Of a stretch of 64,000 bases of DNA, positions 1 to 34,030 are shown one piece after another. The notes beneath the pieces are model-generated. The model was not told the origin of the DNA and ran no database searches. It worked only from the letters and a program-made list of their open reading frames with translations. The translations under genes were made by a program, and so were the position numbers. The stretch is taken from positions 9,552-73,551 of IMG/VR virus record IMGVR_UViG_3300021171_000010, one strand, 5' to 3'. The first letter of the stretch is position 1; the number at the start of each line of letters is the position of its first letter. This DNA comes from a virus.

Positions 1-7
1 GCAGAAA

Positions 8-1315: not shown

Positions 1316-1320
1316 TTTAT

Positions 1321-5543: not shown

Positions 5544-5635
5544 GTGTCTACTTTAGAATACACACTATTATCTCAGCTATGGGGGGATATCCCCCGGGGC
5601 CGCAGTTGCAGGCAGCGCAGGACTGTTAATCCAGC

Positions 5636-6136: not shown

Positions 6137-6139
6137 TCA

Positions 6140-6601: not shown

Positions 6602-6633
6602 TTTTTTCTGGGCATTCACCCACTGTTATTTTA

Positions 6634-8104: not shown

Positions 8105-8140
8105 GCAAATCTAGCTCTCCCTGAGAGCTAAGCAGAAACG

Positions 8141-8172
8141 AGGGGCGCACAGTGGTCAGGCTGTGCGCCCCT
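8141..8172 (+). terminator. Strong hairpin after the capsid gene (terminator or mRNA stabiliser)
   Basis: AGGGGCGCACAG-8 nt-CTGTGCGCCCCT perfect 12-bp stem; no canonical U-tract. Confidence 0.55.
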
Positions 8173-8212
8173 TAATAAAAACTGACAAACATTTTATCCG
8201 TTAGGCGAATTT

Positions 8213-9118: not shown

Positions 9119-9120
9119 GT

Positions 9121-13018: not shown

Positions 13019-13353
13019 AACAAATGGACCGAGATTTGAATATGTCGGAGATGGGGCCGGATAGCCAGCCCGAGATGCCGAGAAACGACCACTATCCCAC
13101 AATTCATTTTGAGGGGCCGGAGGAACTCGGCTTGCCGGAGCACGGCACGATGCTAGTTCATTACAAGGTAAAGCGCGAGGTGGAAACGAAACACCCCCCG
13201 GACCGGCACTGGTATTCTTGCGATATCGAGATTCGAAAAATTTGTGGGGCTGAAGCAGAGAAAGATATGCGACCCTCTAAACGTGATACATCAGCAGAAG
13301 ACAGTTTGGACAGGCTGATGAAAGAGCGCGAAGAGGGCGGTTCACGTGAGTAA
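13015..13353 (+). CDS. Small acidic hypothetical protein
   Basis: ATGA overlap with the upstream gene; 112 aa, highly charged. Confidence 0.55.
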
Positions 13354-16815: not shown

Positions 16816-17446
16816 GTTTACCTTATGGTTTGCGAAAACGATTTTATCGCTCATTCCGGAATCGAATGCGTTTAATTCTTGGGCAGCTAAACGTCGCAGT
16901 TATTTAAAAAGAAAAGGCACCGAGTTTGAAAAATTGAGAGCTAGACTCGCCGCCGCGCGATTTAGAAAAGCACATCCCGAGAAGGCTGGGGAATACTGGG
17001 ACGCATATTACGAGGAACATAAACAAGTTTTGTTTCAAAATAAAAAAGAATTCAACAAACGTAATCCAGAAAAGGTCCGACGATACGGGAGGAACAAGCA
17101 GCGAAATCGCCGAGTAAAAGACCCGGCGTATAGAATCGAATCTTCTATTCGATGCCGTATGCGATTGGCACTTAAAGGACTGAGTAAAAGTAAAAATACT
17201 TTATTACTATGTGGAGTTTCTTCTTGGCAGGAATTGCGCGCCAAGATTGAGCAGACTTTTTTGCCTGGATTTTCGTGGGGTAATTATGGGACCGTGTGGC
17301 ACATAGACCACAAACGTCCTTGCGCAAGTTTTGATTTGTCAGACCCCATACAGCAGGCACAGTGCTTTCATTGGTCAAATCTTCAGGCTCTTTCAGTTCA
17401 AGAAAATTTGAGCAAAGGTGCAAAATGGAATCCGGAGGGAAAGTAA
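16802..17446 (+). CDS. HNH-type homing endonuclease
   Basis: Basic helical N-terminus; 'W.NYG..WHIDHKRPCASFDL...CFHWSNLQAL...ENLSKG'; lower GC. Confidence 0.8.
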   Translation: MTSVKFTLWFAKTILSLIPESNAFNSWAAKRRSYLKRKGTEFEKLRARLAAARFRKAHPEKAGEYWDAYYEEHKQVLFQNKKEFNKRNPEKVRRYGRNKQRNRRVKDPAYRIESSIRCRMRLALKGLSKSKNTLLLCGVSSWQELRAKIEQTFLPGFSWGNYGTVWHIDHKRPCASFDLSDPIQQAQCFHWSNLQALSVQENLSKGAKWNPEGK

Positions 17447-19477
17447 ATGGGCCAGCTTCCTCAAGCAACAGACTCGAACCTAATTCAGGACTTCGATGGC
17501 AGTTTTTTTCAGGGTTCCAAATCCGATTGTGACCCGTCCCAGCTACCTGTTGGGTATGCGTGGAACCTGATTAACATGCTGAATCTCGGCGGAGTGCTTT
17601 CTTGCCGTCCCGGGTATCGTTGCATTTATACTTTGCCAGATGGAAATCTTCAGGGCCTAACTCTTTTTCGTCCTCTCGTGGGAGTGGAGCAGCTTATTGC
17701 GGTGGTGGACGGTTTGATTTACGTTTCTCCATATCCGTTCGTTTCATTTACTCAATTAAGGGGCGTGACCCTTTTGCCGGCAGCGGAACAAGTTTTTTGG
17801 GCGCAGACTTTGCAGGCCGCAGAACGAATTACAGAAGACTTCGCATCTGCGATTAAACTAATTCCCAGCAAAGCAGTGTTGTTCATTCAGGACGGCGGAT
17901 TCTCCGCACCTATTTGGTATGATGGCGCCCAGTTTGGTTCTGTGCAAGGCCACGCATTCGACACGCCCGCAGGTGGTTCGATGGTATGGGTGGGCAGCCG
18001 TTTGTGGGTAGCATCAGGAAATCAAGTTTTTGCTAGCGATGTGGGTAATCCATTTTCGTTCCGGGAAAACATTTACTTGGGTGGCAGCTCAGCCTTTTTC
18101 TTTAACGGTCCAGTAACCGCCATGGCTAAAACGCCATCTATCGAAGCCCCTCAATTGATGGTATTCACGGAGCTTGATGGTTCAATCCTTCAGGCTAATA
18201 TTCAAGACCGGACTCAGTGGCCCACCACAGTAGATTTTCAAGTGGAAGTCGTCCAAGTCGGATGCTCGTCGCAGCGTTCCATAGTTTCCCACTACGGCCA
18301 AATCGCATGGTTTTCTCCTTCCGGTGTCGCGATTTTCGACCCCGCCACTGCGGGCAAATTGACTGCGCGGTTACCCGTAAGAGACAATGAAATGTTGGTC
18401 AGCAAAACTCGTTTAAACGATGACCTTTCCTTGGTAGCGACCGGCGTGTTCGGACAATTTTTAATGTTCTCAGTGCCTGTGGATGACATCTACAATAAAC
18501 ATACCTGGGTGCTCAATCACGCGAGTTTCGAAACCTTGTCAGATACTTCCGGACCTTCCTGGTCTGGTTATTGGCTGGGCACTCGACCGGTAGAGTGGGC
18601 GTATGGGACGGTAGCGGACGTGCAGCGAATTTATCACATTTCAAAAGATGCAGATGGGCATAATCGAATCTGGGAAGCTTTTCGGCCGGAAAGATTGGAT
18701 AATGGTTGCCCGATTACCTGGGCCATGGAAAGTCGGGCCTATTTTGGCCTGACGGCTCCCACCCAGATGAAGGGGCCAGGACAGCGCGCCCGGCTTACCT
18801 GGGGTGATATTGCCATGGCCGGAATCGGTGAGGACATCGACTTGGGGGCGTTTTACGCTGGCGGCACGCGCGGCGCCTATAAACCGTTTCTAGCTAAACG
18901 GCTATCGGTGGCAAGAGGCAGTTTAGCATTTGACCAAGACATTGGAATTAATTCCCAGCTTTTCGCGTTCAAACCGCAATCCCGAGTGGTTCGCACGGAA
19001 GACGCCAGCAAGCAGCCTCTAGATTCTCCTTTAGCTTCGTGTGGCGCCGAGCGCCCCGAAAACGAGAATATTGATGAAAGTTTTCAATTCCTGATTGTGG
19101 GTCACGGGCCGGCAACCATTAGATGGGTGAGAGCATTTGGTCAAACTGTTCCGGAAGCCTTTCAAGGCAGCGGAACCGCATGCACTGATGAAACCGGAGT
19201 GAACGCCGTTCGATTTGATGGTGTTGGTGTGGCTGCTAATGATGAAGCCGGCGCTATCGCCGCTCTGGCGGCCGTCAATACGCAGCGTTATACTTCAGTG
19301 CAAACAGTGTCTGTTACTCAAAAAGGATTCTCTGAAGTAGGTGTAGGGAACGCTGAAAGTATAGTGTCTCAGGAAGCAGCCGACCGAGTGGCGGGAATTA
19401 TTGCCACCAAGCAGGCTGAAGCAGCCTTGTTCGCAGTTGTTCCCCCCGTGGTTTCGCAGGGGGTGGGGCTCCCGTGA
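17447..19477 (+). CDS. Tail nozzle or DNA-stabilisation protein (P22 gp10 / T7 gp12-like beta-propeller)
   Basis: 676 aa, beta-rich; 'LINM...GVLSCRPG' N-terminus, 'RLWVA', 'GCSSQRSIV'; position after the adaptor. Confidence 0.6.
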   Translation: MGQLPQATDSNLIQDFDGSFFQGSKSDCDPSQLPVGYAWNLINMLNLGGVLSCRPGYRCIYTLPDGNLQGLTLFRPLVGVEQLIAVVDGLIYVSPYPFVSFTQLRGVTLLPAAEQVFWAQTLQAAERITEDFASAIKLIPSKAVLFIQDGGFSAPIWYDGAQFGSVQGHAFDTPAGGSMVWVGSRLWVASGNQVFASDVGNPFSFRENIYLGGSSAFFFNGPVTAMAKTPSIEAPQLMVFTELDGSILQANIQDRTQWPTTVDFQVEVVQVGCSSQRSIVSHYGQIAWFSPSGVAIFDPATAGKLTARLPVRDNEMLVSKTRLNDDLSLVATGVFGQFLMFSVPVDDIYNKHTWVLNHASFETLSDTSGPSWSGYWLGTRPVEWAYGTVADVQRIYHISKDADGHNRIWEAFRPERLDNGCPITWAMESRAYFGLTAPTQMKGPGQRARLTWGDIAMAGIGEDIDLGAFYAGGTRGAYKPFLAKRLSVARGSLAFDQDIGINSQLFAFKPQSRVVRTEDASKQPLDSPLASCGAERPENENIDESFQFLIVGHGPATIRWVRAFGQTVPEAFQGSGTACTDETGVNAVRFDGVGVAANDEAGAIAALAAVNTQRYTSVQTVSVTQKGFSEVGVGNAESIVSQEAADRVAGIIATKQAEAALFAVVPPVVSQGVGLP

Positions 19478-20874
19478 ACATTATCCAGGAAAATCTCTTC
19501 TTACGCCGACCGCCCATTGATTATGTGTCGCCCCCGGTGTGTCCAGTTTTCGTGACCCCTTCGAGTGGTTCAGGCTCTTCATTGACCAGCGCTTTTACGA
19601 TTCCAGAATCATGTAATTTGGTATCGCCCACGGCGTTTGTCGGGCAAAACAACATTTTGACTTGGACTCCTCTGCCTACTTCCTGTCAAGGAGGATGCCA
19701 GGATTCTGCCGCATCAGGCGATGCCGACTGCAAAACGGTTGAATTGTGCTATTCAGTATATCGAGCCACCAACGCGAGCAATCCCAATGGAAGTTATGAT
19801 TTGATTGCTTCATGTGTCCCGAAGCTTACTACTATAATGTGCACACCCGGTTGCTATGTTGCGGCTGCGGTGGATGCTCACGGCGTGGAAATCGCGAGAG
19901 GAACACCGGTGTGTGGCAACGGCAGCGCGCCGATTAAGATTGCAATGCCCGTGGTAGACGGAGCGGTAGAATACAATTTGTATCACACCTCGGACCCTTC
20001 TAATCCATCTGGGATGTATCAGTTAGTTTTATCTCTATATGGGGGCGAAGCTTTTGAATTGTGCGCAACTGGGTGTTATCGGGTCGGTTTCATCACGCCA
20101 GACGGAGCAACTCCGCTAGGTAACGTTGTTTGTGTTACTGTGCTGTGCCCTCCCCAGGTGTGTTCCCCTGGAGACATTTGGAATGCGGCGAGCTGCTCTT
20201 GCGTCCCTATTATCTGCCCTCAGCAGCCATGCACTCCCGGTTTGATTTGGGATTTTCTGCATTGCGATTGTGTGCCATGTCCGGTTCAACCCTGCTTGCC
20301 GAGTCAGATTTGGGACACCACCAATTGCGCGTGCGTTACTTGTCCTGTAGAGCCGTGCCCACCCGGGTCCTGCTGGAATCCCTCCATATGCGCTTGCTCA
20401 GGTGCGCCCGGGGCTGGTTGGTCCAATGCAACTATAATTGCTCCCTGGGCCATATATGAGGGAGTGCCCCCGCTTCCGCCCGGAACTTTTGGGATAACCG
20501 GTGGCTACACCGGGAATTCGTCATTGACTGGCTCTTTATTCATGACGGGTGCCGCGGGCTTCAATAATCTTTTCGGGGAAATCCAGTTTAGCGTGATAAA
20601 TCCCGGAGGTGTGGGCAACAGCGCTACCATGATTTGGAATTACACAGCTACCGGTCCATCCAATCTGGGGATTGCAGTAAGCCAGGGGGGATGTTTAATA
20701 GGAACAGGAACCTGTGGAATCATGGTGCCGAACACGCCGGGCTCATACAGCGTAAGCTTTCCATTGCCTTCTTCTCCCGGGATAATCACGGTGGATTTTA
20801 AATTGGAAATCGAGGGACCGGCAGCCTCGAATGTGGCGAATTTAAGCTTTAGTTTCAACAACAACTGTCATTGA
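19474..20874 (+). CDS. Cys-rich virion protein with internal repeats
   Basis: Two FN3-like 'Y..Y....NP.G.Y' units and four 'CP..xC.P...W....C.C' repeats. Confidence 0.65.
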   Translation: MNIIQENLFLRRPPIDYVSPPVCPVFVTPSSGSGSSLTSAFTIPESCNLVSPTAFVGQNNILTWTPLPTSCQGGCQDSAASGDADCKTVELCYSVYRATNASNPNGSYDLIASCVPKLTTIMCTPGCYVAAAVDAHGVEIARGTPVCGNGSAPIKIAMPVVDGAVEYNLYHTSDPSNPSGMYQLVLSLYGGEAFELCATGCYRVGFITPDGATPLGNVVCVTVLCPPQVCSPGDIWNAASCSCVPIICPQQPCTPGLIWDFLHCDCVPCPVQPCLPSQIWDTTNCACVTCPVEPCPPGSCWNPSICACSGAPGAGWSNATIIAPWAIYEGVPPLPPGTFGITGGYTGNSSLTGSLFMTGAAGFNNLFGEIQFSVINPGGVGNSATMIWNYTATGPSNLGIAVSQGGCLIGTGTCGIMVPNTPGSYSVSFPLPSSPGIITVDFKLEIEGPAASNVANLSFSFNNNCH

Positions 20875-20884
20875 GGATAAAAAT

Positions 20885-21712
20885 ATGGCCCTAGTAGCAA
20901 CAGACCTTTTCATCCAGATGGGACCGATTCCGCCCACTTTCATCGGCACACCGCAAGCCCTCGCTGACGCTATGGTGCAGCGCATGAAAATTATGTCGCC
21001 CGGCGGAACGAATTTCATTTTCACAGGAGACACCGCGCCGACTTCAAACGTTGGACCGTGGTTACGCGGCAAGCAGTGGTGGGTATGGGACCCCGATACC
21101 AAGCAGTATGTGCCGCTTGACCTTTCGGCGAGTTTGACAATTCCGTTCTTTATCGGCAATTCTACTCCCTCCGGGACATCTCCTACAGTATGGCTGCAGA
21201 CCACGCAAGATGCGACCACCTCAGCCCCCACAGCTTTTGGAATGCCCATCGGATGGAATGTGTGGAACGGCACCTCATGGGTGCCTTTTGTGGGTATTGT
21301 GACTTCCGGACCGACTGCAAACAGACCCACCAGTCCCGCCAATCTTCAGCAGTTTTATGACACTGATATCAGTTGCTTGATTTGGTGGGAGCGTTCACAG
21401 TGGAGAACTGTGAGTGGGGTGCCCGGCGATTTGAAATTTGTAGTCTTCACCACGCTGGCAGCCGCATTAGTGGCTAATCCCGGCTGGGACCTTTTCGGGC
21501 GAAACACCCCAGGTTTTCTCGGTCGCGGTCTCGTTGCTGCTACCCAGGACGCAGTGGGGTCTAACGGTTCAAGCACATTTGCTCCGGTCCCCGGGGTGCC
21601 GGCGAGGCACGCTTTTGACACCTTCGGTGAGGCGAATCAAATCGCTACATCCGGGTCATCGGGACTGGTTTATCCTCCTAGTATGGCCTTTTGGTTGCTC
21701 GTCAAAGGATGA
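20885..21712 (+). CDS. Tail fibre or tail-associated protein
   Basis: 'TAPT...GPW', 'WNGTSW', 'TANRP', 'PGDLK....GW' collar-like motifs. Confidence 0.55.
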   Translation: MALVATDLFIQMGPIPPTFIGTPQALADAMVQRMKIMSPGGTNFIFTGDTAPTSNVGPWLRGKQWWVWDPDTKQYVPLDLSASLTIPFFIGNSTPSGTSPTVWLQTTQDATTSAPTAFGMPIGWNVWNGTSWVPFVGIVTSGPTANRPTSPANLQQFYDTDISCLIWWERSQWRTVSGVPGDLKFVVFTTLAAALVANPGWDLFGRNTPGFLGRGLVAATQDAVGSNGSSTFAPVPGVPARHAFDTFGEANQIATSGSSGLVYPPSMAFWLLVKG

Positions 21713-21722
21713 CTATTAGGAT

Positions 21723-22163
21723 ATGGTTCGCCGCTTAACGCCCGGAGAGATGGAAGAAGCCGTTTTGACGGTCATGCCATGCTTTGAGAAGGAATTCGGG
21801 CATTTTGCGCCAGTGAAGCCTGAGTTTTTGGCGGCGCACTGGAAGCTCATTATGGATATGGGCGGTCTTGCTTTCGGGCTGGAAGTAGCCGACGAATGGC
21901 GAGGGTTTCTGCTCGGTTCTGTGCTTCCGGACATGGTATCTGGTGTAAAGCAGGGCCTAGAATTTTTTTGGTTGGTTGAAAAAGAGTTTAGAGGTGAAGC
22001 CTCACTTCAACTATTGAATGCATTCGAAGCAGAATGTAAAAAGCGTGGTGCTCAGTGGGTTGTGATTGGCATGTCTCAGCTCGCGGCGCCGGAGAAGCGG
22101 AAACGAAAATACGCGAAACTGGGATACGTTCCCCACTGCGAAACTTGGTATAAGAAAATTTGA
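21723..22163 (+). CDS. GNAT-fold acetyltransferase of the podoviral ejection module
   Basis: 'FWLVEKEFRG...LL.AFE..CKKRGA', 'YAKLGY'; located just before the ejection genes. Confidence 0.75.
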   Translation: MVRRLTPGEMEEAVLTVMPCFEKEFGHFAPVKPEFLAAHWKLIMDMGGLAFGLEVADEWRGFLLGSVLPDMVSGVKQGLEFFWLVEKEFRGEASLQLLNAFEAECKKRGAQWVVIGMSQLAAPEKRKRKYAKLGYVPHCETWYKKI

Positions 22164-22166
22164 AAT

Positions 22167-23174
22167 ATGGGTGACGTATTAGGCTTTGTTGGACAAATTG
22201 GCGCGGCCGAAATTCAATCTTCGGCTGCAGAACGCGCTACTCAGGCACAGCTAGATGCTCTGAATCAGCAGCGCAATTTTGTTTTTCAGAATCTTCAACC
22301 GAGCACGATTAATGCGCAAGCAACTCAGGCGGATGTCCAGCAAACGCTGAGCCAGCTTGAACTGCAGCGTCAAATAGACCCTGGACTTGCTGCCGCTAGG
22401 CAAGCGGCAGGTTCGCAGATAGCAGCAGGCACTGCGGGAATTGGAGCCACGAGCAACCCCATTGCTGCTCAGGCGGCTGCAGAAGCTACTTCCGGCGTGA
22501 GTGGTGCGGCTGGCAGCACCTCTGCTCAGGGTAAACAGCAATTGATTGACGCCGCATTGCAGCAACTTAAGCTTGGCGCTACTCTTCCTCCGGATGTTGA
22601 AGCTCAACTCGTGCAGTCGGGTCTGGAACAATCTGGAATGGTTACCCAATCCGCTTCCGGCCAGGGCATCGGCGGCCAGCTTCAGCGGCAAATCCTTGGG
22701 ACAGCGGGTATTCAGTTGCAGATGCAACGCCAACAGCAGGCGCAAAACCTTTTGATGGGGGCACAGAATCTGGAAACATCTCGCGCTAACATCTTGCAGT
22801 CGTTGTTTCCGAATCTGGCGCAGACTCAGCTAGCCAATCTTCAGGGCGCTGAAGGCGCTTTCAACACCTCGAATGCCGCGGCTCCGAACGTAGGCTTAAG
22901 CGGCACCAATGTGGCCAATTTGTGGCTCGCGCGCGTGGGCGCTACGAATCAGCTTACGCAATCTGCTGCGAACGCCGCGGCTCAGGGCGCAATGGCTCAG
23001 GGCACCATTTGGGGACAGGCCGTAGGCGGAGCCGCGCGCGCTGCAGGCGGAGCGCTTCCCACTGCTAGCCAACTGTGGAGCAGCTTAAACACTAACACCG
23101 GAGCTGGCGGAGTGGCTCCCGGAGCAGACCAGCAAAGCCAAGCAGATGCACAGGCTGCCGCATCGATAATTTGA
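22167..23174 (+). CDS. Internal virion or DNA ejection (pilot) protein
   Basis: Gln/Ala/Gly-rich helical protein with 'SSAAERATQAQ' N-terminus; follows the GNAT. Confidence 0.65.
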   Translation: MGDVLGFVGQIGAAEIQSSAAERATQAQLDALNQQRNFVFQNLQPSTINAQATQADVQQTLSQLELQRQIDPGLAAARQAAGSQIAAGTAGIGATSNPIAAQAAAEATSGVSGAAGSTSAQGKQQLIDAALQQLKLGATLPPDVEAQLVQSGLEQSGMVTQSASGQGIGGQLQRQILGTAGIQLQMQRQQQAQNLLMGAQNLETSRANILQSLFPNLAQTQLANLQGAEGAFNTSNAAAPNVGLSGTNVANLWLARVGATNQLTQSAANAAAQGAMAQGTIWGQAVGGAARAAGGALPTASQLWSSLNTNTGAGGVAPGADQQSQADAQAAASII

Positions 23175-23177
23175 TGT

Positions 23178-23648
23178 ATGGGACTTTTCGGCTGGACAGC
23201 ACAATCATTGGTTCCTCCTCACTCTGTGAGTGCCTTTGGCACTGGTGGTGTGGGAATGCAGAACGTGTCCCAGGTAGGCACCCCGGCGGCTCAGACTTTT
23301 ACCACACCGACCACGCCACAGCTTAACATTCAGCCACAAATGCAGCAGATTCTTGCGAAGATTTTAGGACCTAATTATCAGCAGGGCACGAATCCAAGTC
23401 CCATTGCTGGGTCTCAAGATTTGTATTCTCCGAACTATTTGGCTCAGGTGAATTCAGGCACTGCGCCCCAGGTTTCTCCAAACGGTTTCACTCGATTTGG
23501 GAATTCTTTTTGGCGAATGCCCGCGCAGCAGCCCGCGGAGTCTCAGCAGCTATCGGGCACCCCAGCACCCACTTTTGCGCCCGCAGCTACCAGCTACGGC
23601 GCGCCTTCTGCGTGGACTCCCAACCAAACGAACCTTTTCAATATCTAA
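23178..23648 (+). CDS. Low-complexity internal virion protein
   Basis: Gln/Pro/Thr-rich; within the ejection cluster. Confidence 0.5.
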   Translation: MGLFGWTAQSLVPPHSVSAFGTGGVGMQNVSQVGTPAAQTFTTPTTPQLNIQPQMQQILAKILGPNYQQGTNPSPIAGSQDLYSPNYLAQVNSGTAPQVSPNGFTRFGNSFWRMPAQQPAESQQLSGTPAPTFAPAATSYGAPSAWTPNQTNLFNI

Positions 23649-23651
23649 TTT

Positions 23652-25250
23652 ATGGCTATAGGACAAGAGCCCATTCAACCGATTCAAGCTGGCGCCACTG
23701 CGCAACCGCTAGTCACTTCGGCATCCGATGTCGTCACTCCGGATGCGGTGGCGCAGCTTACTGATGGTTTTCGCAAAGGCTTCATAACGGCTGATGATGT
23801 GGTCAATCGTATCGGGGACGTAGGCAAGGCACAGAAAAAGGCCCTCCTGGAATCTCTTGGTGAATATGTCAATCCGGATTTGATTAATTCACGGCTTGCT
23901 GCTGCCAAAGCTTCGACTGCGCAGAGTAATCTACAGCAGCAGCAAGCAACGGCGGCGCAGGGCATCGTGCAGCCGGCCGCTAATCTCGCGCAGACACAGA
24001 TTGCTTCTCAGCAGGCTGAAGCGGTTTACGGCAAAGGTGGACTGGAAACTTATCAGACTCTTGGGCCGCTCTACGGTGAGTCTATGCCGCCTAATCCGGA
24101 TGAGAACGATTTCAAGAAAGCTGCGCAGCGCGGGAATGAAATGAAAGGGCAGATGATGTTGGCGGACCGGTGGCTGCAACAAATCGCACCAGCGGCAGAT
24201 TACACCTTCACCGATGCCCAAGGCAATACATATCCTCGCAAGAAAAATTGGCAGGGCATTGATGTGACTCCGCCAAACCCTTCGACCGGATATCCCGGGT
24301 CTCCTGCTTATTGGGCCTATGCGAAGCAGCTCGACCAGTTTTTGCCGAAGTTCCATCCAGCCCGGTCCCAGTATTTTCTTGACCAGTCTTCGGCACCTAG
24401 CCCGGATGATGTTCACGAGGTGGAACCTACTGTGCCGGCGGGAACGCATCCCGCCTCGTCTGCGATTGAGCCTTTGACGGATGACCAAGTGCGAGCAGCC
24501 GCGGTGAATAAGTTGGGCCTTACCGGTGACCAAGCGGCGAACATGAACGCCCGAGATTTGACAACCGCCAGGACTCTCATAGAGCCTGCCCAAGCTCCTC
24601 CTGCAGTTGCTGCCGCTCCGGCCGCTGCTGCCGTAGCTCCCGCTTATTCCGGCCAGGGCGCCGCGCCAGGGGAAGTTCCCATAAAGCCCGGTCAGACGGT
24701 GCCTGAGGCACGCGAGCAGCTTCAGAAGCTTCCCGGTATCGAGCAATTTGCCAAGGCTCAGCCTCTGTATGCCAATTTTCTATCCGCGGCAGTGAACGCG
24801 CACAAAACTCCGGCCGGGGAGCCTACGGGAACCAGTGATTTGACTCTGGGAGAAACCTACGGCAAGCTGCTTGACCCGAGCGCCACACTTCGCGAGTTTA
24901 AGTGGGATGCTATCAAAAAAGCCATACCCTGGGCCGATGAGTTTTCGGATGCTAAGAATTTGATTCTGCGCACCCACACTTTCCCACCCCAGTTCCGGCA
25001 GCGCTTGGTGGACGATGGATTCAACATCATCGAAAATAGCGAAAAGGCAATTGCGCCGAAGTTGCAGTATGCTCAGAAGCAATATCCTGGGGTGCTCGAT
25101 TCTGACGAGCAGGGTATCGCGAATGGAGTGCCTTTCCGGCAGCGCAAGGGTTATTACCAAGCAATCGCGAGCTCTCCTGCCGCGGCTGCCGGTGGCAATA
25201 AACGCACAGTAAATATTCCTGGTGTTGGCCCGGTAATCGTCAACTTTTAA
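23652..25250 (+). CDS. Internal virion or ejection protein
   Basis: Ala/Gln/Pro-rich with C-terminal helical domain 'D..L...Y.KLLDP.A..RE'. Confidence 0.6.
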   Translation: MAIGQEPIQPIQAGATAQPLVTSASDVVTPDAVAQLTDGFRKGFITADDVVNRIGDVGKAQKKALLESLGEYVNPDLINSRLAAAKASTAQSNLQQQQATAAQGIVQPAANLAQTQIASQQAEAVYGKGGLETYQTLGPLYGESMPPNPDENDFKKAAQRGNEMKGQMMLADRWLQQIAPAADYTFTDAQGNTYPRKKNWQGIDVTPPNPSTGYPGSPAYWAYAKQLDQFLPKFHPARSQYFLDQSSAPSPDDVHEVEPTVPAGTHPASSAIEPLTDDQVRAAAVNKLGLTGDQAANMNARDLTTARTLIEPAQAPPAVAAAPAAAAVAPAYSGQGAAPGEVPIKPGQTVPEAREQLQKLPGIEQFAKAQPLYANFLSAAVNAHKTPAGEPTGTSDLTLGETYGKLLDPSATLREFKWDAIKKAIPWADEFSDAKNLILRTHTFPPQFRQRLVDDGFNIIENSEKAIAPKLQYAQKQYPGVLDSDEQGIANGVPFRQRKGYYQAIASSPAAAAGGNKRTVNIPGVGPVIVNF

Positions 25251-25253: not shown

Positions 25254-28200
25254 GTGCCTACGTTTACCGCACCTGACGGTTCGCCTGTTACTTTGACCCC
25301 AGAGCAGCAGACTCAAGCGCTTAGCCTTGCATCTGCTGCTACTCCCGAAGCTACTTTCACTCGGCCTGACGGCACTCCCGTCACATTGGCACCTGAGCAG
25401 CAATCTCAGGCGTTGCAACAGGCCCAATCTCCCGCGCCGATGCTTAGCCGGCCGGATGGCACGCCCCTGGACGTCACAAGTCTTCATGCTGAACAACTGG
25501 CCGAGTTGAATAAGCAAGAGCCGGGTTTCGACCTCCCGTCCGTGTGGAATTCCCTGCCCGCGGAACAAAAAACACCTGACGCGCTAGCGAGATTTTCTGA
25601 AGCTTCGCACCTCGTGCATCAGCAGCCTTTTTCGTTGCCTACGGTGACCAAGATGCTTTCCAATCTCTGGCAGCTTGCCAAAGGGGGCGGCGAGATGATT
25701 TCCAACCTTGCCAAGGGTGGCGCTTTGATAGTTGGTGGATATCCCGGCGCAGGCACCTGGATGGACCCCCAGAAGGTTAAGGAAGTTCAGCAGGGAATCG
25801 CCGAAGGATGGTCTGGAACAGAGAGCGCGGTGACTGGACTCGCCAATCAACTCAAGGAAACAGTGGTGCGGCACGTCATTCAGCCGCCTAACACACTGGA
25901 CCCGGCGGTTAAGCAGCAGAATTTTCTTGATGAGGCTGCGATGGCAGACCAGCAGTCTCAAATTCTAAAAGGTCGCGGCGAGTTCATGAATCGAGTTGGT
26001 GGCGATGAAATATCTTATTTGGAGTCACAGGGATTTCCGGTTCGCCCAGAGCATGCTGCTAATCTTGCTCAAGTGGACCCATTCACTTTTTATCTTTTTG
26101 GCAAAGCCTTTGACGCATTGCCGGCGGCTACTAAAGCGGCTATTCCCACGCCGATTTTAGACGCAATTCAAAAAGCCAGCGATACCGCGACCGATACCGC
26201 CAAACAAATCGTGGGCGGAGGAGCTGCTGCGACTGCTGCAGTGCTGCAAGGTGTAGGCGCGGGCGTGACTAAAGCGGCTCCGCATATTGGGCGCCCCGCG
26301 GCTGCGATTGCCGGCGGAATTCATGCCGGCGTGCCGGGCGCGGTCACGGGACTGGTTTTCGGCAAAGGCATGACCGAATCCCTGTCTGAGATGGGGAAGA
26401 AAATTGCTTCGGCAGCTAAAGGCACCGCTAAATTCGGTGAAGGCGTGTCCAGCGAGGCGGCTACCGGACCGGTATCACAGGCTGCCAAGGACATTATTGA
26501 AGCTGCGCCCGGCGCATTAGCTGGTGTCGCTCAAGGCGCCGCTTTAGATGTGGGACTTCAGGCGGCCACAGCAGAGACGCCGCAGCAACAGCAAAGCTTC
26601 ACCCCGGTGGGGACCGCCATGGGATTGACTCATGGTGCTATGTCTGCTGGCAAGTGGATGCTCGGCGGCCAACTTGCAGGAGAGCGGAACTGGGGCGCTA
26701 CCGCAGGTGTGCCAAATTCGGCAGCGTTTCCCGCGCTGAACACTCTCCACAACGCCGCAATGTCTGCTGCGCCCCCTAAGATTCAGGAAAGAATCAGGGC
26801 GATTCAGCAGCTTAAGCAGGGAGTCAATCCTAACACTGATGTTTTCTACATCCCCGACCCGGTGGGTGTGATGGCTGCTCTGGGTGCAACTCCGGGTGCG
26901 GAACAGCATGCTTTTCAGGCCGGCGCCGCGAATGGAGTTTTCTTGAAGGATTTGCCCGGAGCGAATGGGCAGAAGCGCAACGCAATCATCTTCCAGAACG
27001 TAGATGCGGCCCCACACGAAGCAGTGCACGCGATGGATGCAGCTCTCGGAGCGGAAAGAGTAAATGAGCTTAATCAGTCTGCTAAATCAGACTATGGAGA
27101 CCTTTGGGACCAATTTACCAGTCATTACGCCAATTTGCTCAATGGAGGACAGCCACTTCCTGAAGGCACTACGCCAGGAGATTTTCTGCTTCAGCAATCA
27201 GGATTTGGCCCTGAGGCAGCCCGGAATAAAACCGGCGGAGACGGGTCAGATTGGCAGACTGCTCTGACACCAGACGAAAAGCAAAACGCGATTGACCGCT
27301 ACATCGGCGCCGAGATTCGCGCGGAGAACGGGGACGCGTATTTCAAACGCACGGGCGGCAAAGCGCCGGGATTCACAGACAAAATGGCGAATGCTGCCGG
27401 CGAGCTCGTAAGCCTGCTAGGTGGAAATCCCTTAGAGGGACGCGTTAGCAGCGGACTTCAACTACCGTTGCGATGGGACACGTTTAAACAGGCTGGTCAA
27501 ACTCTTGCCGAGGCCCGGGCTAATGTTCCTCCTGCTTTGCGGCCTGTAGCTAGAACGCCACTAACTACTAAGACGGTGCCGACCACGCCGGAGGAAATCC
27601 AGCAGAATGCGGATGACGCAAGAGTAATTGCTGGACAGCAGCCGGCAGAGAAACCGACTGGCGCCGAGGGCGAGCAGTCGCCCAAAGAAGCCCTGGGAAC
27701 AGTTGCTGAAGCGATTGCAAGCCAGTCCCCAGTGCGATATCAATACCGCGGGGCCGCCGGCGAAACTCCTACAGGGGGAGCCTTGGAAACTGATGTTTCG
27801 CAGCGCCAAGCCGAAATAGCCAAAGCTCAAAACGTGTCTGAGACCGACCGAGATCTTTTCGAGCGCGTCGGATTCCCATACAAAGTAGAAATGACCGGCA
27901 AAGGTCCTCAAGTTCTAGACTGGGCGCCCGTAAATCTCGCCGCAAATGCTTTTCGTTGGTCCAAAGCTCTGTCAGAACTAGCCAAGAAAAATCCAAATGC
28001 TCCGGAGCTTGCACGCAATCCATTTGCATTAGATGTCGCGAAAGGCGAGTTCACAACTGAAGGCTGGCATGATTTGTTAGACACTGCACAGAAAGTATCT
28101 GCAAATCAACTTGCCGGATTTGGCGGGGCTGGACAGAAAATCGTTGTGCCGTCCGATTTAGGGGCTGCGAACGTCTATGCACCGCCTCGTGTTTCTGAAA

Positions 28201-31200
28201 CTGCTCCTTTTCAAGTTGACCAAGCGAAAGCAGATTTTATTAACATGCTTTATGGGGAACGTCCGCCAGAGACACCGCGTGTGTCTCGCAAAAGCGGCGT
28301 CCCCGCCAATGTTGTGGCGCAGAAAATCTCTGCCGCTACTGAGCCCGGAAGGGTAGTTGAGCCAGCGAAGATTCGAGCAAAGCCCAAGCAGGCCGCCGGG
28401 CTTGGCGTGGAACCTGGGACGTTAATAGAGCGCGCGCCATTCAAAGAGCCAATTTTGGGTGTGCCTACCATCCAGGAAGTAAATCCCACCCGAGGTGCTT
28501 TAGAAAATGCCCTGCAGTCCGCCGGTGTTGAAATCCCCAAGATGACAAAAGTCATCCGCCGGTTGAACCTGGAACATATCCATTCAGTTCAACCGGAACC
28601 AAATCTGCCGCGGACCGCGGGCGCCAATGTTCTAACCACCACTGCCGGCTTTATGCCGGTGACGGATTTTGTTGACCGGCTTGATAAAACCTCGCCGGAT
28701 GATTGGCGAAACATGGTGACCAATTATCAGGGCCGATTTGGGGGTGGACAGACCGGTTTGTCAATAGAGGTTGGGGCTGGGGCAAAAAGTCCTGAGGAAG
28801 TGGCAGCTTTGCAATCTGCTACGGAGCGCCAAAGTGAACTAATGCGCGGGGCTTTAAAGAACAGAGATTTTCAAACTGCCGCGGGATATGCGATTAAGGC
28901 GCAGGCAGCTAGAGAGGCTCATGAGGCCGCTACTGGTGGCGGAGGGATGCCAGATTTTCTGCAAAGGTATCACCCCGAGGCTGGATATAAACCTCCGTTT
29001 CCTGAATCGACTTTACAAGCTGCGCCGCGGAATGAAGATGTGGCCAAAGTGGCAGAGGATTATGTGGGCCGACCGCTGCGTCCCATCGGCAATTTGCCAA
29101 TCAGCCCCGACTTAGGCAAGCGCCTCGCGGACTTCGCACAGGAAGCGCAGCACAATCCGGATGACCCTGCTGTGAAGGCTAGTTATGGTGCGTTGAACGC
29201 GCAGATTAAACAGCAGTATGACGCAATCCGGAAAGCGGGCTACACTGTAGAGCCGTGGACCGGCGCAGGCGAGCCTTACAAGTCCAGTGCCGAGATGTCT
29301 GCAGACGTGCGCGACAACAAGCACCTTTTCTTCACGCCAACTGCGCGCAGTTTTAGTGGCCAAGAAAACAACTTGATGCTACAACCCTCTGGCGTGGGTG
29401 ATTTAAGTCATAATGATTTATTCCGCGCGGTGCATGATTTCTTCGGCCACGCCAAGGAGGGGTTGCAGTTTGGTCCCCGGGGTGAATATAATGCTTGGCG
29501 GGAACATTCCCAGATGTTCAGCCCGGAAGCTCAGGGCGCCTTAGCTGCCGAGACTTTGGCTCAAAACGCTTTCGTAAATTTCGGTAGTCATCTCCGCAAC
29601 GCGGAAGGAAACATACCGGCAGTGGGAGAGCCCGGGTATGTTCCGCCTGCTCAGCGACCTTTCGCGGAACAAAAAAATTTCGTGGTGCCCTCCGAACTCA
29701 GGAAAGCCGCACAATTTCAACCACTTCCTCCCGGTGCTGGCAAAGCTCTTGATTGGCGTGACTTAGGGAACGATACTCTTGCTCCCGGCCTTCACATCGA
29801 AGCTATCGCTGGAAAGCCTCCTGCTGTTCCGATTTCTCAGCTCCAAAAAGAGGGCTGGAAAACGATGGACTTTCAAGATAATGGAAGCTTCCATGATTAC
29901 GACAATCGCCCCGTTTTTTACAAAGATAATACGGGAAAATTTCCCGTAACTCCTGATGGAGTAAAGGCGGCTTCTGAGGCCGCTAGTAAAGCTTTTGATG
30001 AAGCTCAAAATTTAGCGTTCGAAGACCGATATGGCGAAGGCCCCGTTCAATATCAGCCTAGACCAATCGAAGAGGCGCGTAGCGAGCCGAAAACGATTCT
30101 AATTCGCCACGGAACGACTGCCCTGAATAACACTGACCCGACCAAAGATTTAATCCGCGGGCACAAAAACGTTCAGCTTAGTGAAGAGGGCCGACAGCAA
30201 GCCGCGGAGCTGGGGCAGCAGCTTAAAACCTCTGGTATCTCCAGAATTTATTCCTCTGATTTAGACCGCACCATGGACACTGCCAAGGAAGTGGCCAAAA
30301 CCACCGGTGCGCCTATAACGCCCGATGCTAGACTAAGGCCCTGGAAACTTGGAAGCACAATCGAAGGAAAACCGACAGCGGATATGCTGCCTAGAATCAA
30401 ATCTCTTACTGAGAGTCCAGATGAACGACCGCCCGGCGGAGAGACCTTCAATGAATTCAAGGACCGTTTTCTTGAAGGCTATCACGCAATCCAGGACGCG
30501 CATCCGAATGAGCACACCGCTATAGTGACTCACTATCGCGGCACGAAGTTGATGGATGCTTGGCGTGCCGCCGGCGTGGATAATGACGAGGTGAAACCAG
30601 ATGTTTTCGATGCATATGACCCGCACAAAAAACCGGGCAGTTATCAGGTGCTCGACAAGCAAGGTAATGAGCTACCTCTAGATACCGCTCGCCCGGAGGG
30701 AGCTCCAATCACTCACCTCTCTGATGCTGAGTTGAACTCGGCGCCGGGCATGACGCGCGAGCAGACTCTGGCAGCCGAGCGAGGGGGAACCCAGCCAGCA
30801 CAGTTCAAGCCTCGTGAGAAACAGGAAAAAGAAATCGAGCTGCGCCACTGGTCAAACATTCCGGGACTCAAAGTGCTTGACCCTCGTTTTCATGGCACCG
30901 GCTTGAGTGGTGAGGAACGCGCCCGAGCCCGTGACTACAAAGAAATTTACGTGCCTCGCACCTATTTTGGAACGAAGGATTACACCAAAGAGCCGAACCT
31001 GGGGCCAGAGCAATACCGCGCTTTTGTGCAGCGCAGCAAGCTCTACCCGTTTCAGGAAGACCCCAAAGATTTGTGGCCCACGCCGGAGGAAGTGGAAAAG
31101 GCCGGATACGCGCCGATGGACTCTCGCGCGGCGAATACGCTTTACGAAAATAAGATTGCGCAGGCTGGTTATGAGGGCTATATTCACCGTGATGCAAAAG

Positions 31201-33164
31201 TCGCTGCGAAGTTCACCAAGACTCCGGTAGAATATTTAGGCTCTATGGCCCAATTCTCACCATCTACCAAACCTCGTGCTATCCGAGCAGCCGCAGTGCA
31301 AGACAAAGACACTGGCCAAATTTTCGAAGGTTTTGCACATTTTGATGCTCACGGAAAAATGCTGGATGCTGGTTATAATCCTCACGACTTGTTTCAGCAC
31401 CCGCAGGGTTTTGTGACAAATGAAGGTGAATTTTTGGACCGAGAACAGGCTTTAAAAAGGGCGAGAGAATTGGACCAAATACGTCCTTCCTACGCCGAAA
31501 ATAAAACGCGAACGCGTGCTATTGCTGAGGCTATAGATATGGCCGCCAAACCCCCATCCTCAGCAGAGCCGGCCGGGCCGGCGCAATTCAAACCCGCGGG
31601 CGCTCCCAAACTGGAAGATTTCCAATCTGAAGACAAAATAGCTAAAGCGCTCGCGCGCCCGGGATGGGCATTACTCACCGCGACCGAAGAGCGAAAAGGT
31701 CCCGGCACTGCTCCGGTAAATGTGAAAGCAAACGAACGCTTATCAGACAGACTCGCTCAGCTCGGTTATGATTTCACTCCTGTAGCTGGCAGCTATAAAG
31801 GCATCGACCAAGGCCAGAATTTTCTCGTGACTGGCATTTCTCCACAGGATGCTCTCACGCTGGGGAAGGAATTCAATCAAGAATCCGTTCTTACTCCCGC
31901 CGGACTGGTGTATCAAGACGGAAGTGTGCACCCCGCCAAGCCGGAAGAGACTACCATAGGCAAAGCGGCCAAGAAAAACGATTTCTATTCCCAAGTCCAG
32001 GGCGGCCCGGCATTTTCGATGGGTATCGATTTCGAGAACAAGATTCCCGCTTCTGAAGCTCCAGTCCCCGCGGCTCGGCCAGAGCAGCAGATGATGGGCG
32101 GAGAGTTTTCGCCCACCAAAGAGCTGGCCGGCAATCAAATGTCGCCCACGGAGCTGAAGGAACATTACCCGGAAGCGATTGTAGTGCCTGATAAGGAAAA
32201 CGGCAAGCCTGTAGGCATCCCTTCGGATATCAAAGAATCTCCACTCTACAAAGAGCATGAGACTGAAGCTGAGGCAGTGGACACTTTCGCTAAACGACTC
32301 GCAGACTTTGCTCGCCAATACAAAGACAACCCAGCTTACAAAGATGGGCTGCGTTGGTATTCTGAATTCGTCCCGCTTTTGAAAAAGCATTTTGGCGAGC
32401 ATGCCCAAATAATGGCTGAGCTCCTGGCGGCCACAAGCCCGCAGAACAATCCACAGCAAAATTTTGCGATGGCGAATGATGCGCTGGAAATGTGGAAGCG
32501 CGGCAAGTTCGATAAACAGCTCGCTAAATTCGAAGAAGGTGCAAAAAAGATTGAAGATGGGACTTGGAAAGATTCCGGGGCGCCGACCGAAGCAAAATTC
32601 ATGGCTGACTGGATTGATGAGCACGATTTAAAACCGCGGCAGAGCAATGGAAAGCTTTATAACATGCACTCTGTGCCAGTGCTTCAGGTGCTCGCCCGCA
32701 AGTGGCTAGAAAACACCGGCGGCCCGAAGACTCAAAACTTCGTCAAGAATCTCTTGGGCACCGGGCATGGCGCCACTTATGATGTGTGGGCTGACCGTAC
32801 CCTTCGCAGAATCGGATATTCAGGGCATCAAGCGCGATGGCGAATCCTGCCAAAGAACGCGGTGGGGGTCTCAGATGCTGATTTTGCTTTCGGCCAGAAA
32901 GTTTTCGCCAAGGCAGCCAAGGAGCTCGGCGTGAGGCCGGATTCTCTGCAGGGCGGTCTGTGGTTCGCAGAAAAACAATTGTGGGCGGACAACGGGTGGG
33001 GTAGACTTGACTTAGGCGATTTTCGGAAAGAAATCCAGAATCGCGAGTTGCTGAACCGCGGCATTGTGCAGCGCTTGGCAGCTACGGAAGCGGCGCAGCA
33101 AGCTCCTCAGACTGCGCAGAGCGGATTTGATTTGGGAATGATTGAACCGAGACCGATTCGATGA
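25254..33164 (+). CDS. Giant polyvalent internal virion protein (zincin HExxH, histidine phosphatase, ART-like, DUF3293-like and other domains)
   Basis: Three 'PDG[ST]P' N-terminal repeats; Gly/Ala hydrophobic region; HEAVH at 27015-29; 'LIRHG' phosphatase; modular C-terminal half. Confidence 0.8.
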   Translation: MPTFTAPDGSPVTLTPEQQTQALSLASAATPEATFTRPDGTPVTLAPEQQSQALQQAQSPAPMLSRPDGTPLDVTSLHAEQLAELNKQEPGFDLPSVWNSLPAEQKTPDALARFSEASHLVHQQPFSLPTVTKMLSNLWQLAKGGGEMISNLAKGGALIVGGYPGAGTWMDPQKVKEVQQGIAEGWSGTESAVTGLANQLKETVVRHVIQPPNTLDPAVKQQNFLDEAAMADQQSQILKGRGEFMNRVGGDEISYLESQGFPVRPEHAANLAQVDPFTFYLFGKAFDALPAATKAAIPTPILDAIQKASDTATDTAKQIVGGGAAATAAVLQGVGAGVTKAAPHIGRPAAAIAGGIHAGVPGAVTGLVFGKGMTESLSEMGKKIASAAKGTAKFGEGVSSEAATGPVSQAAKDIIEAAPGALAGVAQGAALDVGLQAATAETPQQQQSFTPVGTAMGLTHGAMSAGKWMLGGQLAGERNWGATAGVPNSAAFPALNTLHNAAMSAAPPKIQERIRAIQQLKQGVNPNTDVFYIPDPVGVMAALGATPGAEQHAFQAGAANGVFLKDLPGANGQKRNAIIFQNVDAAPHEAVHAMDAALGAERVNELNQSAKSDYGDLWDQFTSHYANLLNGGQPLPEGTTPGDFLLQQSGFGPEAARNKTGGDGSDWQTALTPDEKQNAIDRYIGAEIRAENGDAYFKRTGGKAPGFTDKMANAAGELVSLLGGNPLEGRVSSGLQLPLRWDTFKQAGQTLAEARANVPPALRPVARTPLTTKTVPTTPEEIQQNADDARVIAGQQPAEKPTGAEGEQSPKEALGTVAEAIASQSPVRYQYRGAAGETPTGGALETDVSQRQAEIAKAQNVSETDRDLFERVGFPYKVEMTGKGPQVLDWAPVNLAANAFRWSKALSELAKKNPNAPELARNPFALDVAKGEFTTEGWHDLLDTAQKVSANQLAGFGGAGQKIVVPSDLGAANVYAPPRVSETAPFQVDQAKADFINMLYGERPPETPRVSRKSGVPANVVAQKISAATEPGRVVEPAKIRAKPKQAAGLGVEPGTLIERAPFKEPILGVPTIQEVNPTRGALENALQSAGVEIPKMTKVIRRLNLEHIHSVQPEPNLPRTAGANVLTTTAGFMPVTDFVDRLDKTSPDDWRNMVTNYQGRFGGGQTGLSIEVGAGAKSPEEVAALQSATERQSELMRGALKNRDFQTAAGYAIKAQAAREAHEAATGGGGMPDFLQRYHPEAGYKPPFPESTLQAAPRNEDVAKVAEDYVGRPLRPIGNLPISPDLGKRLADFAQEAQHNPDDPAVKASYGALNAQIKQQYDAIRKAGYTVEPWTGAGEPYKSSAEMSADVRDNKHLFFTPTARSFSGQENNLMLQPSGVGDLSHNDLFRAVHDFFGHAKEGLQFGPRGEYNAWREHSQMFSPEAQGALAAETLAQNAFVNFGSHLRNAEGNIPAVGEPGYVPPAQRPFAEQKNFVVPSELRKAAQFQPLPPGAGKALDWRDLGNDTLAPGLHIEAIAGKPPAVPISQLQKEGWKTMDFQDNGSFHDYDNRPVFYKDNTGKFPVTPDGVKAASEAASKAFDEAQNLAFEDRYGEGPVQYQPRPIEEARSEPKTILIRHGTTALNNTDPTKDLIRGHKNVQLSEEGRQQAAELGQQLKTSGISRIYSSDLDRTMDTAKEVAKTTGAPITPDARLRPWKLGSTIEGKPTADMLPRIKSLTESPDERPPGGETFNEFKDRFLEGYHAIQDAHPNEHTAIVTHYRGTKLMDAWRAAGVDNDEVKPDVFDAYDPHKKPGSYQVLDKQGNELPLDTARPEGAPITHLSDAELNSAPGMTREQTLAAERGGTQPAQFKPREKQEKEIELRHWSNIPGLKVLDPRFHGTGLSGEERARARDYKEIYVPRTYFGTKDYTKEPNLGPEQYRAFVQRSKLYPFQEDPKDLWPTPEEVEKAGYAPMDSRAANTLYENKIAQAGYEGYIHRDAKVAAKFTKTPVEYLGSMAQFSPSTKPRAIRAAAVQDKDTGQIFEGFAHFDAHGKMLDAGYNPHDLFQHPQGFVTNEGEFLDREQALKRARELDQIRPSYAENKTRTRAIAEAIDMAAKPPSSAEPAGPAQFKPAGAPKLEDFQSEDKIAKALARPGWALLTATEERKGPGTAPVNVKANERLSDRLAQLGYDFTPVAGSYKGIDQGQNFLVTGISPQDALTLGKEFNQESVLTPAGLVYQDGSVHPAKPEETTIGKAAKKNDFYSQVQGGPAFSMGIDFENKIPASEAPVPAARPEQQMMGGEFSPTKELAGNQMSPTELKEHYPEAIVVPDKENGKPVGIPSDIKESPLYKEHETEAEAVDTFAKRLADFARQYKDNPAYKDGLRWYSEFVPLLKKHFGEHAQIMAELLAATSPQNNPQQNFAMANDALEMWKRGKFDKQLAKFEEGAKKIEDGTWKDSGAPTEAKFMADWIDEHDLKPRQSNGKLYNMHSVPVLQVLARKWLENTGGPKTQNFVKNLLGTGHGATYDVWADRTLRRIGYSGHQARWRILPKNAVGVSDADFAFGQKVFAKAAKELGVRPDSLQGGLWFAEKQLWADNGWGRLDLGDFRKEIQNRELLNRGIVQRLAATEAAQQAPQTAQSGFDLGMIEPRPIR

Positions 33165-33337: not shown

Positions 33338-34030
33338 ATGGCAACTGATACTAGCATGATTCAACCAGCGGATGACGCTGCTCCGCCTTCTCCTCAGGTC
33401 CAGCCCGCCAATGCACCAGCACCCCCTGCCGGGCCAAAGCTTTCCGAAAAGCTGCTCAAGATGCCGGCGATGCAAGCGCTTTTCGCTGGTGCACCTCCGG
33501 CCCTGAGCGCACCCACCAAGGACTTTACTCAATCCAAGCGGGACGAGGCTAAGATAATCAAGGACAATCTCCCAGCGCTGCAGCAGGTCGGCATGGGCTT
33601 TTACAAGTCCCTGAGCGGTCATCTGGGGGTTATATACAACATGCTGCATGTGCACCTGCAGGATTTGCAGGCTGCAGATAAAGCCGGCAAGTTGACCGTC
33701 TTGGCGCCAGATTTTGATTCCATCACCCACGCAGTGTCCAAAAGTGGGGCACGTAACCCTGTCCTGGCGGTCCGGGGTGTTCCTAAAGGCTTCAAAACTC
33801 CTACTCCCCAGGCCCCGCCTCTGGCCGCCCCGGTGCCCCCAGGCGCTTCTGGACCCGCTCCCGCCCCTATGTCACCTCCTCCGGCTCCGCAAGTGCGCCC
33901 CGCCCCCGCCGGCGTTCAGCGCAAGCTAGCTAATGCGAGAGTGGCGAACCTTCAACCGGGCGCCCCGACTTCTGGGGCTTCTCCGGGTGCCGGCCGATTG
34001 CTGAACGCAATCATGAAGCCAGTCATCTAA
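33338..34030 (+). CDS. Pro/Ala-rich hypothetical late protein
   Basis: ACTATTA 4 nt before ATG; last + strand gene of the module. Confidence 0.6.
   Translation: MATDTSMIQPADDAAPPSPQVQPANAPAPPAGPKLSEKLLKMPAMQALFAGAPPALSAPTKDFTQSKRDEAKIIKDNLPALQQVGMGFYKSLSGHLGVIYNMLHVHLQDLQAADKAGKLTVLAPDFDSITHAVSKSGARNPVLAVRGVPKGFKTPTPQAPPLAAPVPPGASGPAPAPMSPPPAPQVRPAPAGVQRKLANARVANLQPGAPTSGASPGAGRLLNAIMKPVI

Follow-up and report, generated by a model that had tools for sequence, protein, structure and literature searches.

The window analysed here, a 64,000-nucleotide stretch of viral DNA, covers positions 9552-73551 in a virus record of 73,551 bp, which CheckV judged complete. Its longest gene (25254..33164, on the plus strand, as are all features given below) starts with GTG and encodes a 2,636-residue giant protein, which is a phage polyvalent protein of the kind described by Iyer et al (2017). 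Several unrelated domains share the chain: Pfam searches returned His_Phos_1 at residues 1615-1761 (E = 2.7e-33), DUF3293 at residues 2155-2212 and DUF7178 at residues 2361-2572; a zincin-like domain is predicted as well, and at least seven units appear to fold separately. The DUF3293 and DUF7178 matches passed their curated cut-offs (29.8 bits against 25, and 29.7 bits against 27). The protein also matched four PHROGs families of unknown function, including phrog_3170 and phrog_839, and carries a precomputed PF26092 annotation. Its layout is a fixed, collinear N-terminal chassis of ~1,135 residues, a variable series of cassettes, and a conserved C-terminal block, or cap, bearing DUF7178; within our local Pfam library, no model matched the chassis or cassettes 1-3.

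The giant gene lies downstream of, and on the same strand as, tail-fibre-like genes and one gene with a "virion structural protein" match; no large gene comes after it in this conserved structural block. In a comparison of 33 related loci from IMG/VR, five upstream ORFs and a downstream 230-residue ORF were kept in 23-32 of the loci. Almost none of the neighbouring ORFs matches PHROGs or Pfam, so the phage appears to belong to an uncultivated lineage. Megablast of the giant gene against 50,697 phage records found no match, a single-protein scan of IMG/VR found no close relative, and tblastn against 50,697 deposited phage genomes recovered single cassettes and never the N-terminal 1,135 residues. 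From a collection of 5.8 billion proteins, 8,000 candidates were scored, and 132 of them are relatives at E <= 0.001. These are 1.5-3.6 thousand residues long, lie on contigs of mostly 45-78 kb, and include ART-PolyVal, GNAT, radical SAM and LPD domains. At nine loci, we looked for cassettes encoded as separate genes beyond a shortened giant gene, and no downstream ORF matched the family.

The chassis begins with three repeats of ~30 residues, seen in the translation as F-T-x-P-D-G-[ST]-P-V-T-L-x-P-E-Q-Q... (25257..25508, residues 2-85). A Gly/Ala-rich, weakly hydrophobic region follows (26151..26663, residues 300-470, 39% G+A), with low pLDDT at residues 308-390. The zincin-like domain (26700..27548, residues 483-765) is predicted to contain three strands, an HExxH helix (residues 583-598) and a helix at residues 673-700 with Y683, E687 and E691. 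The motif itself, HEAVH (27015..27029; H588, E589, H592), is invariant in an alignment of 30 sequences, and HExxH is kept in 109 of the 116 domain hits that cover this position. Seven relatives with an altered catalytic glutamate or first histidine (HDxxH, or first histidine lost) still carry the junction motif described below. In the same 30 sequences, the candidate third metal ligands on helix 673-700 are an invariant E687 and an E691 conserved at 90% or more. The remainder of the chassis (27624..28631, residues 791-1126) includes a WYL/Sm-like small barrel.

The predicted model places a three-stranded sheet before the active-site helix and resembles solved zincins; the HExxH domain is like lethal factor and the PPEPs in predicted fold, with a middling fold score. 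Pfam returned no family at E <= 10 for residues 561-1135. Searching PDB sequences with the 30-sequence chassis profile gave no meaningful match, which says nothing against a zincin fold, and Foldseek of the whole chassis against the PDB returned long helical proteins only (E >= 0.08), by which a zincin fold is not shown to be absent. The chassis model bears a weak likeness to N-terminal portions of polyvalent proteins from other uncultured phages (E = 2.6e-5 and 6e-5), and a very weak one to T7-like internal virion proteins in BFVD (E = 0.03-0.2, TM ~0.1).

Seven cassettes separate the chassis from the cap. The first (28659..29012, residues 1136-1253) is helical and was delimited from the AlphaFold2 model and HSP breakpoints; the second (29028..29708, residues 1259-1485) is a "VHDFFGH" domain matching phrog_3170; and the third (29724..30044, residues 1491-1597) has cover from only about five homologues and is poorly modelled for that reason. 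The fourth (30060..30797, residues 1603-1848) had been called a histidine phosphatase in the initial annotation, and its His_Phos_1 profile match, RHG motif and fold all place it in branch 1 of that superfamily. The fifth (30813..31247, residues 1854-1998) had been described as ART-like. An ESM Atlas search gives a lead in that direction (0.93; 24 of 30 hits are PF18760 clusters), the PF18760 HMM had no hit over the genome at E <= 1 and Pfam none for residues 1854-2003, and the cassette is thus a possible ART-PolyVal-like ADP-ribosyltransferase, as a lead only. The sixth (31263..31580, residues 2004-2109), a "GFVTNEGEFL" module matching phrog_839, is the most mobile cassette of the family.

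The seventh cassette (31596..32099, residues 2115-2282) is a DUF3293 domain, as first read from the sequence, and its predicted structure is similar to the SAM hydrolase chain in 7ock. The modules had also been cast as anti-defence effectors, and this SAM-hydrolase-like module, resembling a phage enzyme, is the one for which that idea found support. Foldseek and VIA searches with the 1,199-residue cassette model were dominated by histidine phosphatases, so that cassettes 1, 2, 3, 5 and 6 were barely compared with solved folds. The cap (32115..33161, residues 2288-2636) is conserved across the family and ends in IEPR (33141..33152), three residues before the stop. In 50 of 109 family proteins the last 12 residues include a string of the form [LIVM][EQ]PR, which only 0.26% of random windows do; this would fit cassettes that each end in a site.

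A short motif stands at every boundary between these units. Junction 1, AGFMP (28644..28658), closes the chassis, with G1132, F1133 and P1135 invariant in 30 sequences. It is followed by junctions 2, LQAAP (29013..29027); 3, AQFQP (29709..29723); 4, VQYQP (30045..30059); 5, AQFKP (30798..30812); 6, AQFSP (31248..31262); 7, AQFKP (31581..31595); and 8, GEFSP (32100..32114), a degenerate copy that reads VQFSP or FQFQP in relatives. All eight, and HEAVH, lie where the initial annotation had put them. To locate them relative to folded structure, we used an AlphaFold2 model of residues 1136-2334 built from a 36-row alignment (mean pLDDT 75), in which segments with pLDDT < 50 make up 21% of residues. 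Junction 4 falls within such a segment, junctions 5-8 overlap one, and junction 3 ends one residue before one; junction 2 lies in coil at pLDDT ~73-75 rather than in disorder, and junction 1 in the disordered tail of the chassis model (residues 1125-1135). Five look-alike strings that had not been proposed as linkers (LQFGP, AGYAP, AGYNP, AGYKP and PGYVP) are all in confident regions. The junctions therefore stand between predicted folded domains, in agreement with the domain-boundary placement first suggested. The linker had originally been written xQ[FY]xP; a conserved junction motif of this kind does exist, and the pattern as written has a sixth match, LQFGP (residue 1404), which lies inside the conserved "VHDFFGH" domain and is no linker.

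We derived a consensus from 135 unique family sites at which at least five HSPs end on a proline preceded by F or Y in the motif; some 60 of these are chassis ends. It reads A(91)-[G(73)/Q(44)]-F(133)-Q(87)-P, and the next residue is K, S, R or P. Across 117 chassis-bearing proteins, [QGK]F[not G]P occurs 562 times against 131.3 in shuffled sequences, FQP 288 times against 32.4, and QAQP 82 times against 5.4; because of this last enrichment, LQAAP counts as a degenerate, QAQP-type member. Among enriched gapped words, QF.P ranks third in this phage's protein (P0001) alone, and in each of the four relatives tested the top rank goes to this word or to its lineage variant. The motif is at chance level in the other ORFs of this genome and in 23 distant polyvalent proteins without this chassis; in a cultured Flavobacterium podovirus, the polyvalent structural protein (3,694 residues) has one instance, also chance level. 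Junctions of the same gene differ in synonymous codons at every position (CAA/CAG, TTT/TTC, CCA/CCT/CCC/CCG, GCA/GCC/GCG), and therefore it is the peptide, and not DNA homology, that is under selection.

The initial annotation had offered module swapping as one role for the linker, and comparison of homologues bears this out. BLASTP of the giant protein against 119 relatives gave 358 HSPs. Coverage is deep over residues 81-1135 (~66-94 relatives) and 2320-2580 (~93), and shallow over residues 1501-1840 (4-9) and 2081-2260 (35-42). In 20-residue bins that contain linkers, 50 HSPs end at 1121-1140 and 67 at 1481-1500 (junction 3), while 23 start at 1241-1260, 12 at 1841-1860, 43 at 1981-2000 (junction 6) and 54 across 2261-2300. 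At junction 1, 28 of the 45 HSPs listed there end exactly at residue 1135; the subjects read ...AGFQP up to this point and then run on into differing modules, often the one found at residues 2004-2109 in this phage. Cassette order thus varies within the family, and from one relative to another a given cassette may change place or be present two or three times.

An all-against-all comparison gave the same picture: of 26,611 HSP ends internal to the proteins, 8.5% coincide exactly with the proline of [QGKRE][FY]xP, against 0.4% of random positions, and HSP starts peak three residues before that proline. This loose pattern was dropped for segmentation, as it cut inside domains, and was replaced by a position-weighted definition. 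Cutting 114 proteins at the junctions so scored gave 427 segments in 123 clusters (91 singletons) and 96 architectures, counts that are underestimates, QAQP-type junctions having been left out of the cutting. The nearest relatives differ from P0001 by whole cassettes. In P0004 residues 1485-1847 are replaced; P0005 has ~125 residues inserted at AQFKP 1849; homology blocks with P0006 end at 1135 and 2003; and a deletion in P0003 starts at 1491 and ends 32 residues short of the next motif. On these sequence comparisons we consider it established computationally that the motif is a module junction, the place where cassettes enter, drop out, duplicate and change order.

The residue between F and P (hereafter x) varies in concert along each protein. 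Two junctions of one protein share it with a probability of 0.486, against 0.277 +/- 0.016 after shuffling (59 proteins, 295 sites; maximum 0.33 in 2,000 shuffles, the shuffle ignoring kinship between proteins). Whole proteins are of FLP type (P0086, P0089, P0092), FEP type (P0037, P0048, P0077), FKP/FRP type (P0046, P0054, P0074, L021, L028), FMP type (P0087, L024) or FAP type (L013), and some of these non-Q proteins are nested among FQP-type relatives. On the chassis tree, a minimum of 11 changes is needed to account for Q versus non-Q, and 4 for K/R status. A site co-evolving with its reader would look like this. We considered whether the C-terminal [LIVM][EQ]PR string also co-varies with x and rejected this by eye; K-type and E-type proteins likewise end in VEPR or IEPR.

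We then searched the chassis for columns whose charge complements x, and residue 595, three after H592, was the only one that looked meaningful. In raw counts it tracks x: proteins with Q595 (n = 64) have x = Q 173 times and K 10 times, those with D595 (n = 18) have K 20, R 5 and Q 13 times, and the K595 protein P0077 has E at three of five junctions. P0046, L028 and P0037 are counter-examples. A phylogeny-aware test had 4-6 independent pairs (p = 1) and hence no power, and we treat the apparent pairing as a lead, not as evidence.

From these observations we propose that the chassis zincin cuts the polyprotein in cis at the junction motif to give separate enzymes, a reading whose chances we put at even. 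The string small-[Q/G]-[F/Y/A]-x-P, set in the disordered spacer that closes each cassette, would be the recognition site of the zincin. By analogy with PPEPs, phenylalanine would occupy P3, x would occupy P2 and proline P1, with the cut directly after proline; such a register would also fit the sharp end of homology at that residue. Release of the enzymes would happen inside the capsid or once the polyprotein has entered the host. Only in-frame exchanges at the spacers would preserve both folding and processing, and for that reason gain, loss, duplication and reordering of cassettes would concentrate there. The protein-level motif, its concerted variation, the near-invariant HExxH in a domain of lethal-factor/PPEP-like predicted fold and the confinement of the motif to one gene are indirect lines consistent with cis cleavage, against which stand the altered-active-site relatives that keep the motif, precedents of unprocessed MPTases and the middling fold score. 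Its extension to a general processing code is plausible at somewhat less than even chances: a post-proline, lethal-factor/PPEP-like zincin would cut after every small-[Q/G]-F-x-P, any cassette could be plugged in, and the lineage-specific FQP, FKP, FEP, FLP, FMP and FAP codes would drift with the specificity of the protease. We further infer that the giant protein is packaged in the virion and ejected with the DNA, because of its position in the structural block, its Gly/Ala-rich, weakly hydrophobic stretch, its weak fold resemblances and the precedent of other polyvalent proteins.

Conservation and coinciding breakpoints do not by themselves demand cleavage. The motif may instead be an uncleaved short linear motif of the spacer, such as a capsid docking or packing signal or a hinge or handle for threading through the tail, with exchange marking only where recombinants survive; we regard this as unlikely. 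It would account for a motif that persists where the zincin looks impaired, and the related terminal [LIVM][EQ]PR could then be a docking tag. Other MPTase-bearing polyvalent proteins are delivered whole, according to the accessible sections of PMC5512222. A passive hinge, however, needs no invariant F and P around a co-varying middle residue, and the motif co-occurs with the HExxH chassis and is absent from the other polyvalent proteins examined. F-x-P is also similar to what the proteases nearest in structure prefer on the non-prime side.

It is less probable still, in our estimate, that the motif is cleaved in trans by a protease of the host or a different one of the phage (a prohead protease, for instance), and that the zincin has some other job, for example degrading cell wall or a host protein. 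Such roles have been raised for other metallopeptidase domains: the available part of a phi24B preprint proposes a peptidoglycan role for the gp47 metallopeptidase (bioRxiv 10.64898/2026.04.10.717836), and the accessible text of PMC5512222 allows that MPTases may themselves be effectors. The retention of the motif in relatives with HDxxH or without the first histidine would also follow. Yet enrichment of the motif, to be expected as a rule in the substrates of a prohead protease, is seen in none of the genome's other ORFs, and a scan of 33 neighbouring or large ORFs found no protease family. Concerted switching of x in proteins nested among FQP-type relatives likewise fits a recogniser carried by the gene better than a host enzyme. 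That the motif is a DNA-level microhomology aiming cassette exchange, with no role in the protein, would explain the clustering of breakpoints and is very improbable, as 15 bases are too few for homologous recombination and only the amino acids, not the codons, are conserved within genes.

Polyvalent proteins are thought to be a main route for sending counter-defence enzymes into the host along with the DNA of phages and conjugative elements. They were already known; as far as our searches reach, a conserved, lineage-tunable junction and a fixed chassis, cassette and cap layout are undescribed. We found no described junction or cleavage motif in the literature searched on polyvalent proteins (subscription journals and supplements lay outside the search), nor DUF7178 by name. 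With the motif as a rule, cassettes of unknown function can be delimited in giant proteins from metagenomes, of which there are thousands, and it explains how cargo can be shuffled freely enough to give 96 architectures in 114 proteins. The 2017 proposal of zincin self-processing, for which the searched literature held no defined site, gains a concrete and cheaply testable motif. If cis cleavage is correct, this would be the first processing code to be defined by sequence in phage polyvalent proteins, a standard socket for adding enzymes to an injected arsenal, and possibly a compact pair of site-specific protease and tag.

PPEP-1, PPEP-2, PPEP-3 and anthrax lethal factor are zincins of the MEROPS M34 type. 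The chassis has no sequence similarity to them that Pfam or PDB profile searches could detect. In PPEPs a hydrophobic S1 pocket takes up the P1 proline, a hydrophobic residue stands at P3, and the second histidine and the residue four after it form part of the S2 pocket; VNP, PLP and PSP are among the accepted P3-P1 strings (excerpts of PMC12828418). PPEPs are small secreted enzymes that cut between prolines, whereas the chassis zincin is one domain of a polyprotein and would be a post-proline rather than a Pro-Pro enzyme: proline follows the junction proline in only 16 of the 135 family sites, and in P0001 the following residues are L, R, R, S, A, T, V and R. The spacing of Tyr190 and Glu197 in PPEP-3, seven residues, also differs from that of Y683 and E687 or E691.

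MARTX toxins and viral polyproteins are like the proposed system in that a built-in protease cuts short conserved sites between domains and frees an assortment of effectors reshuffled between strains. They use a cysteine protease domain or 3C/NS3-type enzymes; to our knowledge their proteases, sites and delivery routes are unrelated, and nothing here is homologous to them. The head-protease sites of T4, phiKZ and SPN3US are short consensus motifs. In these phages, capsid-packaged proteins that are ejected are cut by the head protease (available portions of PMC10052503 and PMC7411985), a separate enzyme that acts on many virion proteins, whereas here the motif is confined to one gene with its own candidate protease. 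By its description in the available part of the preprint, the 2,811-residue gp47 of phi24B, a podovirus, is likewise a giant polyvalent protein that includes a metallopeptidase domain; mass spectrometry detected it in virions, and it is a proposed ejection protein (bioRxiv 10.64898/2026.04.10.717836). It differs in carrying LPD1/5/38 and a MuF-C peptidase, and that text reports no processing or junction motif.

The giant protein belongs with the polyvalent proteins of Iyer, Burroughs, Anand, de Souza and Aravind (2017; PMC5512222), which in the accessible sections are giant phage proteins encoded among late or structural genes, in which numerous unrelated catalytic domains stand beside an HExxH MPTase proposed to process the protein into functional units. 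Those sections define no cleavage site, whereas the family described here has a junction motif, a chassis, cassette and cap architecture, and concerted variation of the motif within each protein.

The structural genes flanking the giant gene (window 25254-33164) lie at 15808-25250 and 33338-34030, and the synteny of this whole block is conserved in the IMG/VR relatives, a 335-aa ORF showing identities of up to 71%. A Pfam search with the ORFs of the block returned zero matches, and PHROG matches were limited to two, both weak, in a 275-aa ORF and a 146-aa ORF. The phage belongs to a deep, unannotated lineage. The conserved block also contains, three genes 5' of the giant gene, a small acetyltransferase-like ORF (21723-22163; phrog_1249, E = 1.8e-06), which recurs in 12 of the 33 related loci.

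Farther upstream are collagen-like tail-fibre genes (11819-13018 and 13346-14911), whose PHROG matches span many tail-fibre families, the lowest E-value being 7.6e-21. Two adjacent nucleotide-sugar-epimerase-like genes precede these within 1321-4815 (phrog_540, E = 2.6e-74 and 7.8e-89), along with an ORF weakly resembling glycosyltransferases. To the left of the window, genome bases 1-9600 include a gene resembling serine recombinases/invertases (phrog_95, E = 2.9e-38), together with one for an HNH endonuclease; adjoining these genes are two large unassigned ORFs, 644 and 708 aa long, which may encode the terminase and portal. The phage may be temperate.

At its extreme N-terminus, the giant protein carries three tandem repeats of ~30 aa (aa 2-85; window 25257-25508) with the consensus F-T-x-P-D-G-[ST]-P-V-T-L-x-P-E-Q-Q-[ST]-Q-A-L, the third copy being degenerate. 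The repeats form short strand pairs in the predicted structure, and one guess is that they serve as a capsid or portal targeting signal. The protein ends in an [LIVM][EQ]PR tail (33141-33152) that is shared with the C-termini of relatives: the motif is conserved in 50 of 109 family proteins, positioned 0-6 residues ahead of the stop codon. Across the family proteins, we found no co-variation of this tail with junction type, the residue between F and P in the motif separating the cassettes.

The zincin domain of the chassis (HEAVH in the giant protein), proposed to cut these junctions, is naturally altered in several relatives. Four proteins (P0054, P0069, P0086 and P0092) and the loci L014/L033 and L030 either read HDxxH or have lost the first histidine, and all retain full sets of junction motifs. 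These variants provide existing material for testing whether the proposed processing occurs in cis, by the chassis zincin, or in trans, by another protease.
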